From assembly GCA_028711415.1 (NCBI GenBank), contig JAQTSG010000001.1:1-55872 (forward strand): a stretch of 55,872 bases of DNA, in the 5' to 3' direction. This document shows positions 22,465 through 51,028 of the stretch, piece by piece. This DNA comes from Patescibacteria group bacterium (GTDB lineage: Bacteria; Patescibacteriota; Patescibacteriia; Patescibacteriales; JAQTRU01). How positions within the stretch are numbered: the first letter of the stretch is position 1; each line of letters opens with the position of its first letter. A model generated the notes under the pieces. That model was not told the origin of the DNA, ran no database searches, and worked only from the letters and a program-made list of their open reading frames with translations. The position numbers were made by a program, and so were the translations under genes.

Positions 22465-23439
22465 ATGGCTAAGACAAAAGAAATCCAAAGAAGAATAAAA
22501 TCCATAGGCAACACGAAAAAAATTACGCGGGCTATGGAAATGGTGGCGGCTTCAAAGATGAAAAAGGCGGTGGAGTCGGTTTTGCGCACCCGGACTTATG
22601 CTAATTTAAGCTGGACTACGATTTTAAATCTTTCCGCCGCGGTTGATTCCGGCAGAAATCTTCATCCGCTTCTTTCGGCCAGGAAAGAAATAAAAAAAGT
22701 GGGAATAATTTTATTTTCTTCAAACCGCGGCCTTTGTGGCGGGTTTAACGCCGCGATTGTCAATAAAGCGGTTGATTCAGCAAAAAAGCACGAGAAAAAC
22801 GAGAAGGGAGATAAAATAGAAAATGAATTTATTATAGTCGGGAAAAAAGGCCGGTCGGTTTATTCCCGTTTTGGCTATAAAATCTCGGCGGCTTTTGAAA
22901 AGCAGGATACTTGCACCGAGGTTAGGGAAGTAAGCTCACTGGCTCGTTTAATAATTGATGATTTTTTAGCCGGCAAATGCGATAAAATAATGGTGGCTTA
23001 TTCGGACTTCGTGAGCGCTACCCGGCAAGTGCCCCGGGTTAAGCAGCTTCTTCCTATAGACATATCGGCTCATGAAGAGTTTTTGGGCGTAGTCGGGGAA
23101 GATAGCCGGGTTGGGGCGGATAGGCAATATCTTAAAGGCAAAGAAGATAAATATTTACATGATGAGAAAAAAAATAAATATATTTTTACCTATGAGCCAG
23201 GTCCGGAAGAAGTTTTAAATGAGATGCTGCCTAGAGTTTTGGAAATCCAGCTTTTTCAGGCTTTGTTGGAGTCCAACGCTTCCGAGCACAGCGCCCGCAT
23301 GGCGGCTATGCATCAGGCCACGGACGCGGCCGGGGATTTAGTTGATGAGCTTACCTTATTTTACAATAAAGCCAGGCAGGCCGCGATTACCTCGGAGATA
23401 GCGGAAATATCGGCGGGAGCAAATGCGTTGAAAGGTTAA
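22465..23439 (+). CDS. atpG: F0F1 ATP synthase subunit gamma
   Basis: IKSIGNTKKITRAMEMVAASKM start, C-terminal ITSEIAEISAGANAL. Confidence 0.9.
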   Translation: MAKTKEIQRRIKSIGNTKKITRAMEMVAASKMKKAVESVLRTRTYANLSWTTILNLSAAVDSGRNLHPLLSARKEIKKVGIILFSSNRGLCGGFNAAIVNKAVDSAKKHEKNEKGDKIENEFIIVGKKGRSVYSRFGYKISAAFEKQDTCTEVREVSSLARLIIDDFLAGKCDKIMVAYSDFVSATRQVPRVKQLLPIDISAHEEFLGVVGEDSRVGADRQYLKGKEDKYLHDEKKNKYIFTYEPGPEEVLNEMLPRVLEIQLFQALLESNASEHSARMAAMHQATDAAGDLVDELTLFYNKARQAAITSEIAEISAGANALKG

Positions 23440-23572
23440 AATAAAAAATAATAAAATAAAAAAATAATATAAAAATTAAAATAATTTAAGTATTCTTCCT
23501 GACTTTAGTCAGAGTTAAGAAGATGAATTAAAACATTTTAACTCCCACTAAATTGGGGTAGAAATAGAGAAT

Positions 23573-23606
23573 AAAAAAAGCCACCCCTGAAGTTGATTGG
23601 GGTGGC
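23573..23606 (-). terminator. Intrinsic terminator of the antisense orphan gene
   Basis: On the minus strand GCCACCCC-N11-GGGGTGGC followed by T7. Confidence 0.75.
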
Positions 23607-23639
23607 GCGAATGAAGGAAGCGGAGAGTTGTTTATTCAC

Positions 23640-23933
23640 TTAAAATGAATGAAGCTCTGCCTGATGGATTTTTTCCGGATATTTCTCGGCCTCTGCGGGG
23701 AGGTTAATATCAGCAAATCCGAGGATTTCCGCGGCTCGTTGAAAAGTACGAAGGATGTTTGCGTCAATGCGCGCTCGGTCGAAGTGAATTACCCCTGGGT
23801 TTCCCATGGTTGTTTCTATAAACCAGCAGATAAGAGCATCTCTTCGATTTTTTTCTTCCGATTTCCGGATAATTTTCACAATATCATCAACAATTTTGAT
23901 GAACTTTGGGTCTTCAAATTGGTTACCCGACAT
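23640..23933 (-). CDS. Orphan 97-aa protein encoded antisense inside the atp operon
   Basis: ATG 23933 preceded by AAGGAGAG 9 nt upstream; own promoter and terminator; no family recognised. Confidence 0.6.
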   Translation of the reverse strand: MSGNQFEDPKFIKIVDDIVKIIRKSEEKNRRDALICWFIETTMGNPGVIHFDRARIDANILRTFQRAAEILGFADINLPAEAEKYPEKIHQAELHSF

Positions 23934-24013
23934 GGTGGCACTCTCCTTTTCTAAGAAATGAACAAAGATATTATTGTTATCATGAATAAAAAATAGTTTA
24001 TTATTAATAAGAA

Positions 24014-24042
24014 AATATATCATAAGATTAATAATTTGTCAA
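24014..24042 (-). promoter_or_regulatory. Promoter TTGACA-17-TATATT on the minus strand
   Basis: Reverse complement of 24014-24042. Confidence 0.6.
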
Positions 24043-24062
24043 TTCTTAAAAATTAAAGATAA

Positions 24063-25517
<1,455 letters not shown>

Positions 25518-26230: not shown

Positions 26231-26252
26231 ACGGGGGAAAGCCCGTTTTTTG
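26231..26252 (+). terminator. Weak intrinsic terminator after the atp operon
   Basis: ACGGG GGAAAG CCCGT followed by T6. Confidence 0.5.
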
Positions 26253-26278: not shown

Positions 26279-26306
26279 TTGACAAGTTTTTTAAAAGTGT
26301 TAAAAT
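26279..26306 (+). promoter_or_regulatory. groESL promoter TTGACA-16-TAAAAT
   Basis: Direct read. Confidence 0.7.
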
Positions 26307-28518: not shown

Positions 28519-28550
28519 AGAGGGTGGAGAAATTATCCACCCTCTTTATT
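28519..28550 (+). terminator. Intrinsic terminator after groEL
   Basis: GAGGGTGGA-N7-TCCACCCTC followed by a T-rich tract. Confidence 0.75.
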
Positions 28551-50862: not shown

Positions 50863-50877
50863 ATTTTTCAAACAAAG

Positions 50878-50935
50878 TTAAAGATAAAAAATAAAATATA
50901 AAAAATAACGTGATCTATCTTTAATTTTCTATTTT
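50878..50935 (-). repeat. 58-nt AT-rich element (inverted partner of 24063-24120)
   Basis: Reverse complement matches 24063-24120 with 2 mismatches. Confidence 0.85.
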
Positions 50936-51028
50936 CTTTCTTTATTTTTTTAAGCGGTTCCATAACAATTTTAGGATTTGTCCCGCCCGCCCCGCTCCTG
51001 CGGTGGCCTTGGCCGGATTTCGCTTCGC

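Follow-up and report, generated by a model that had tools for sequence, protein, structure and literature searches.

An antisense unit between atpG and atpD of a Patescibacteria ATP synthase cluster: a regulatory frame conserved in sequence around exchanged coding cargo

Why should a gene with its own promoter and terminator lie back to front between two genes of an ATP synthase operon? The question is raised by a stretch of 55,872 nucleotides (the window) belonging to a genome of 1.1 Mb in 68 contigs that is 97% complete (G000). In the window atpB, E, F, H, A, G, D and C form a canonical F-type cluster, with strong Pfam matches for all of these genes. A sequence-only reading had proposed that the gap of about 700 bp between atpG and atpD holds a self-contained transcription unit on the minus strand, antisense to these two co-directional plus-strand genes for F1 subunits. 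The gap measures 695 bp (23439 is the last base of atpG and 24135 the first of atpD), and the unit lies within it just where it had been placed. Its parts and their surroundings are listed here in window coordinates.

22465-23439, plus strand: atpG (F1 gamma subunit; PF00231, E 4.8e-90), the upstream flank of the slot
23440-23572, no strand assigned: AT-rich spacer from the atpG stop to the antisense terminator, without counterpart in relatives and without a sense-strand intrinsic terminator
23573-23606, minus strand: intrinsic terminator, GCCACCCC, an 11-nt loop, GGGGTGGC and then T7; part of the conserved frame
23640-23933, minus strand: orf97, the cargo, 97 aa plus stop, by translation
23941-23948, minus strand: Shine-Dalgarno sequence (SD) AAGGAGAG, 7 nt upstream of the ATG at 23933, as read from the sequence
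23934-24007, minus strand: AT-rich 5' leader of about 74 nt from an inferred transcription start; part of the frame, with the conserved block TTTGTTCATTTCTTA
24014-24042, minus strand: sigma-70-type promoter TTGACA-17 bp-TG-n-TATATT (extended -10); part of the conserved frame
24045-24134, no strand assigned: AT-rich palindromic repeat that separates the antisense promoter from the atpD ATG; dispersed, outside the frame
24135-25517, plus strand: atpD (F1 beta subunit; PF00006, PF02874), the downstream flank of the slot
26231-26246, both strands: bidirectional intrinsic terminator after atpC, from our own terminator scan; the likely end of the atp transcript

The promoter, described earlier as TTGACA-17-TATATT, has its -35 element TTGACA at 24042-24037, and its TATATT ends at 24014. 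It matches at 11 of 12 positions, carries the TG, and is the top-scoring site within 4.5 kb, a region where the count of promoter-like sites is not above that of shuffled sequences. The leader, at first put at about 70 nt, comes to 74 nt, and the SD and the 97-aa ORF at 23933-23640 were borne out by sequence and translation. The terminator, with an 8-bp GC stem in a hairpin at 23606-23580 and a T7 that reaches 23573, is as clean as had been claimed: its folding energy is -20.7 kcal/mol (z = -4.45), a value matched by 0 of 200 shuffles. GC content is 0.42-0.50 in orf97, matching the other genes of the window, against 0.20-0.28 in its flanks. A search of 23300-24300 against Rfam gave sub-threshold chance matches only. 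Other readings of the region were rejected: an extended ORF of 127 aa would start inside the -10 element, a 101-aa shadow ORF on the plus strand is broken in contigs L002 and L043, and a 10-codon upstream ORF in the leader of the window is absent from the other frames, so that none is conserved.

It had been noted that the encoded protein resembles no recognisable family, and the searches agreed. Pfam (including its inhibitor families), NCBIfam and PADLOC gave zero matches, PHROGs gave none that was significant, and structure searches also ended without a family match. Relatives were sought among 5.8 billion proteins by a word-indexed search and among 1.84 billion cluster representatives by an exhaustive HMMER search. 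With about 15 billion proteins searched, the family has three known members: orf97, P0003 (97 aa, 79% identity to orf97, on the 945-bp contig L002) and P0004 (140 aa, 49% identity over 81 residues, on the 2-kb contig L043). A further match, the TPR-repeat protein P0005, was set aside as spurious, and a cytochrome c555 construct that matched marginally in a PDB sequence profile search was disregarded. The dN/dS between orf97 and P0003 is 0.38. Between orf97 and P0004, protein identity stands at about 47-51% while the 4-fold sites, at an identity of 0.28, are saturated, and this points to selection on orf97 at the protein level. On these comparisons orf97 is a real gene. Its AlphaFold (AF2) model has four helices and a disordered N-terminus (pLDDT 71.6), from which a soluble four-helix protein without a membrane segment is predicted. 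No significant fold match was found for the model in the PDB and viral structure libraries, and tblastn of orf97 against phage and plasmid records found nothing.

The context of P0004 is not an atp cluster. Since this only distant relative adjoins an IS256-type transposase on an unrelated contig, orf97 looks to have been acquired laterally and not to be an ATP synthase subunit. The earlier claim that it is not a conserved atp accessory subunit is likewise upheld by its distribution, the orf97 family being present in one of 316 genomes of the order. The P0004 gene itself (L043 1447-2021) encodes a 58-aa N-terminal extension and diverges from the transposase gene (Transposase_mut), and a lysine-rich small ORF begins 14 nt after it. 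P0004 and this small partner may constitute a two-gene mobile module; a homologue of the partner gene was sought in G000 and none was found.

Alignment with related genomes shows that the regulatory frame, consisting of promoter, leader and terminator, is orthologous among them, and that the coding cargo within it has been replaced. The frame recurs in the genus relatives G002 and G003 and in the metagenome contigs L002 and L087, and in G002, G003 and L087 it stands at the atpG-atpD junction. (The atpG of the window is 89-94% identical to that of its genus relatives.) The same promoter is present in these four, the terminator is conserved in all of them, and the AAAGGAG of the SD is kept in five of five frames. 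At the G002 junction the same promoter, leader with TTTGTTCATTTCTTA, SD, first codons (ATG TCN GA) and terminator surround the gene for a protein of 133 aa that bears a membrane helix at its N-terminus. The G003 junction has a GIY-YIG gene and GC-rich repeats, followed by the same frame, which here encloses the ORF of a 34-aa hydrophobic peptide, while L087 reads atpG, repeats and a frame with a 145-aa cargo, with atpD only 37 nt beyond the -35. The 145-aa cargo is a homologue of the 133-aa protein of G002 (49% identity); its structural model (TM-145, pLDDT 59.6) gave weak OB-fold-like matches only and was not used. Among the three types of cargo, that is orf97, the 133/145-aa protein and the 34-aa peptide, tblastx found no similarity in any reading frame, which rules out that they are frame-shifted versions of each other. 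When the frames are aligned, the exchange spans about codon 3 to the stop codon.

Homology between the window and L002 extends from just before the -35 to the T-run of the terminator and no further, the flanks being unrelated, and the terminator stem has undergone a compensatory C-G to T-A change (GCCACCCC/GGGGTGGC in the window against GCCACCTC/GAGGTGGC in L002). The promoter and terminator motifs occur once each in G000, so the frame is not a dispersed repeat. A promoter-pattern scan of public genome and metagenome collections, in which the matches were mostly chance ones in AT-rich Firmicutes, identified only L061 (which is G002) and L087 as carriers. In G001, the nearest relative when judged by atpG, the atpG-atpD junction measures 92 bp and lacks the unit, which is therefore dispensable. 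The term "orphan cassette", which had been applied to the locus, is right about the protein, but the unit is not a one-off: it is a conserved frame which relatives fill with unrelated ORFs.

How strongly the frame is held can be judged from G002 and L087, two lineages in which synonymous sites have reached saturation, the atpG of L087 having 72-74% protein identity to that of the genus. The values for this pair are as follows.

G002 against L087, 4-fold sites of atpG: identity 0.40
G002 against L087, 4-fold sites of the shared cargo: identity 0.35
G002 against L087, promoter plus leader: identity 0.87

The difference between 0.87 and the two lower values indicates that the frame, which is non-coding, evolves more slowly than neutral sites and than its own cargo protein. 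Across the frames, promoter plus leader are 70-87% identical, and the 4-fold sites of atpG 40-67%. A promoter spacer is normally free to vary. Here the spacer is conserved, its sense strand having TATAAT in L002, G002, G003 and L087 and TAAGAT in the window. The five leaders that were compared have no conserved RNA fold, and no Rfam family was found to account for the constraint.

Divergence between orf97 and its counterpart at L002 173-466 is mosaic. The dS is about 1.75 for codons 1-29 and about 0.14 for codons 30-97, the latter being 93% identical at the nucleotide level. In the leader, the window and L002 share 74% identity, and the 3' part of orf97 is more conserved than the leader and 3' UTR which flank it. 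This mosaic is suggestive of a recent exchange involving the 3' two-thirds of the ORF.

The locus had been considered unusual on the premise that atp operons are normally uninterrupted. In this order the premise fails. The atpG/atpD junction was resolved in 68 genomes, a non-random sample, of which 43 have compact junctions (126 bp or less) and 25 have expanded ones (185 bp to more than 1.2 kb). A strict intrinsic terminator is present on the antisense strand in 19 of the 25 expanded junctions, against two with a terminator on the sense strand, both of them weak. In at least 14 of the 25, no more than about 140 nt separate the atpD ATG from a consensus promoter that faces away from atpD, and in G013, G022, G025 and G027, which represent four families, the antisense -35 is just 4 nt from that ATG. 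Several terminators of the order have a GCCACC...GGTGGC core in common. The cargo may be lacking altogether, may be a hydrophobic peptide of 19-34 aa, or may be a soluble or membrane protein of 65-154 aa. As far as can be judged from these junctions, antisense units are common between the gamma and beta subunit genes across the order, and the slot exemplifies an order-wide tendency to keep a unit of this kind, from antisense promoter to terminator, at that junction. No description of antisense units at the atpG-atpD junction was found in a literature search. For annotation the lesson is one of caution: a long gap in a CPR atp operon will usually contain real antisense genes, with many very small ones among them.

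Some junctions differ in their content. That of G023 (L010 1260-1400) has an antisense promoter followed after about 75 nt by a terminator, with no ORF between them, and may represent either a frame with no cargo or the gene for a small antisense RNA. In G020 (L028) a sense-strand ORF of 337 aa lies between atpG and atpD, and has cysteine motifs that resemble, by eye only, those of a radical-SAM enzyme. Other occupants include a GIY-YIG gene and a DUF559-like fragment.

What happens when atp transcription meets a unit of this kind? Whether the unit would collide with read-through from atpG to atpD had been asked at the outset, and the question is an apt one: terminator scans detected no intrinsic terminator on the sense strand between the two genes, and a search of G000 with the rho model matched atpD and atpA only, which leaves the genome without Rho. 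Operon ends in the window bear intrinsic terminators, at 26231-26246 after atpC and at 28522-28542 after groEL, and from the presence of the one after atpC it appears that such terminators are in use in G000. (The groES promoter, at 26279-26306, lies beyond the first of them.) Because the gap has no sense-strand terminator and the genome has no Rho, the atp transcript most likely reads through the unit. It would then pass into atpD-atpC and end at 26231-26246. Given such read-through, the orf97 mRNA would be fully complementary to the operon mRNA, and each could repress the other through head-on collision of polymerases and cleavage of the duplex by RNase III, a gene for which is present in G000 (237.9 bits against a cut-off of 166). 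The antisense terminator would bar the counter-transcript from atpG.

Taken as a whole, the locus is in our view best explained as a frame with swappable cargo, combined with atp read-through and mutual repression as in a noncontiguous operon, an explanation in which belief and doubt are for us evenly balanced. A wider and decidedly speculative version, which we consider rather improbable, would make the frame a built-in module for counter-transcription between the gamma and beta genes of the atp operon in Rho-less Patescibacteria. The expression of the cargo would run inverse to atp transcription, the frame would perhaps guide RNase III in separating atpD-atpC from the genes upstream, and it would be a landing pad for small genes. 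The proposal regarding the landing pad, or nursery, is that a permanently active and insulated expression site would favour the capture, swap and loss of such genes.

The surroundings of the unit are rich in repeats. The atpD ATG, before which no SD could be read in the sequence, is separated from the antisense promoter by the palindromic repeat of about 90 bp, a 90% identical copy of which is located at 50865-50950, about 26.7 kb away. Partial copies are found on both strands at many loci of G000 and also in G002 and G003. The repeat is absent from L087, which has 37 nt at that position, and from G001. It precedes another SD-less gene as well, and upstream of atpD it may carry start signals. 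On the other side of the unit, the position of the spacer 23440-23572 is occupied in G002, G003 and L087 by other repeats or by the GIY-YIG gene. GC-rich repeats of the TTTCTGGATCCCCGTTTYCACGGGGATGACGAAA and CCCGCGCAGGCGGGAAT types flank both the cassette and the GIY-YIG gene (L002 1-34 and 618-651; L006 gap), and this gene, for a nuclease of 89-100 aa, has 63%-identical copies on two other contigs of G000, C58 and C59. In G003 a multi-copy insertion element is present between the antisense promoter and the atpD-proximal repeat (L006 1-130, L035 1590-1713). Five contig ends bear the 125-bp end of this element, whose terminal inverted repeats, GGGTATAC..GTGGAACA.GAG, are imperfect and which is flanked by a 9-bp direct repeat, CTAAAAAAT, the target duplication.

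The foremost alternative, which we regard as less probable, is that the operon is split in two, free of regulatory coupling. In this case atpD-atpC would have a promoter of their own, either bidirectional in the frame or within the palindrome at 24045-24134, and the antisense unit would be a tolerated by-product of a promoter region in which genes settle. The TATAAT on the sense strand of the conserved spacer in four frames, with TAAGAT in its place in the window, might be an atpD promoter and is in keeping with this, but near atpD no sense promoter reached the scan threshold save one 9/12 site. In the four families with only 4 nt between the antisense -35 and the ATG of atpD, any sense start must still overlap the unit. 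The occurrence of the palindromic element upstream of a second SD-less gene also favours an internal start, but the element is missing from L087 and G001. G003, with its insertion element between the unit and atpD, and G020, with its sense-strand gene at the junction, both hint that expression of atpD-atpC need not depend on an unbroken connection to atpG. However, with a sense terminator in only two of 25 gaps and with no Rho, transcription from upstream must still pass. Read-through and an internal promoter are compatible with each other and need not be mutually exclusive.

A toxin-like role, in which a harmful small cargo would be silenced by the complementary atp transcript and would rise when atp transcription falls, seems to us very unlikely. 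Many cargos of relatives are indeed small hydrophobic peptides or membrane proteins (19, 30, 34, 69, 72, 74, 118 and 133/145 aa) with strong promoters and SDs, and RNase III is at hand. Against this, orf97 is predicted to be soluble with no membrane segment in its 97 aa, other cargos (71, 103 and 154 aa) are soluble too, the frame of G023 has no ORF at all, and PADLOC returned zero matches.

Its position inside the atp cluster invites the thought that orf97 is an accessory or inhibitory protein of ATP synthase encoded beside its target genes, in the manner of the zeta subunit, IF1 or AtpTheta, and the AF2 model shows a small helical protein whose N-terminus is disordered. We would give this little credence. 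The family is confined to one of 316 genomes, the frames of genus relatives hold unrelated ORFs or nothing, there is no Pfam match to inhibitor or other families and no fold or sequence match in the PDB, and the distant homologue P0004 adjoins a transposase and not atp genes. An ATP synthase subunit or known inhibitor was accordingly rejected on three grounds: the absence of a family or fold match, the lack of conservation, and the different cargos of other frames.

That orf97 is spurious, and the unit a source only of non-coding antisense RNA acting on the atp mRNA, is barely credible, for although G023 has a promoter and then a terminator after about 75 nt without an ORF, and the frame is more conserved than any cargo, orf97 has protein identity of 47-51% to P0004 despite 4-fold sites at 0.28, a strong and conserved SD at the correct spacing, a coding-like GC content against AT-rich flanks and a dN/dS of 0.38.

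The preferred reading, a conserved frame with exchangeable cargo traversed by the atp transcript, has likenesses to several known systems. The integron cassette shares with it a fixed expression platform, exchangeable single-ORF cargo and a hairpin 3' of the cargo. In integrons the hairpin belongs to the cargo, whereas here, as read from the sequence, the same hairpin serves different cargos and is followed by a T-run, which identifies it as a terminator and not as a cargo-specific attC. By the same kind of reading, no integrase or attI is evident beside the slot, and there is one slot and not an array.

Phage morons are autonomous insertions into phage operons, placed between genes and composed of a promoter, an ORF and a terminator. 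The unit described here is like them in being autonomous, in lying between genes which are adjacent in relatives (it is absent from the same junction of G001), in having cargo with no link to the function of its neighbours, and in varying in presence between close relatives. It differs in being flanked by chromosomal atp genes and not by those of a phage or prophage. Morons, moreover, are described as coming and going in their entirety, whereas here the signals stay, conserved above neutral expectation, and only the ORF changes. A phage moron in the strict sense was rejected for these reasons, the chromosomal site and the exchange of the ORF alone. A type I toxin is a small hydrophobic peptide, usually of fewer than 60 aa. 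Some cargos of relatives would fit this size and hydrophobicity, but orf97 does not, and at 97 aa and predicted soluble it was rejected as a toxin of this type.

The closest likeness, in our preferred explanation, is to the noncontiguous operon (Saenz-Lahoya et al. 2019; PMC11034616) and to the excludon concept (PMC7154746), in which a gene on the opposite strand likewise lies between co-directional genes of one operon. In noncontiguous operons the overlapping transcripts repress each other, and in those of S. aureus many of the counter-oriented genes encode small peptides (PMC11034616). The class is defined by co-transcription across the antisense gene, which is not computationally predictable and needs RNA data (PMC11034616). 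The antisense gene described here has its own promoter and terminator, and full overlap of the mRNAs would follow from the read-through that we infer. If the read-through is true, an uncultured lineage with tiny genomes and no Rho would have a noncontiguous operon, and this within an operon that ranks with the most conserved in biology. The locus might then serve as a system for studying how orphan small genes come by expression signals that are already in place, how the stoichiometry of ATP synthase subunits is tuned in CPR bacteria, and whether operon mRNAs can regulate embedded cargo by antisense action. It would also bring a feature undescribed for noncontiguous operons, namely expression signals more conserved than neutral sites that drive a gene which is itself exchanged. 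In the noncontiguous operons described so far the antisense gene is fixed, whereas here it is the frame that is conserved and the gene inside it that is exchanged, in a host without Rho.
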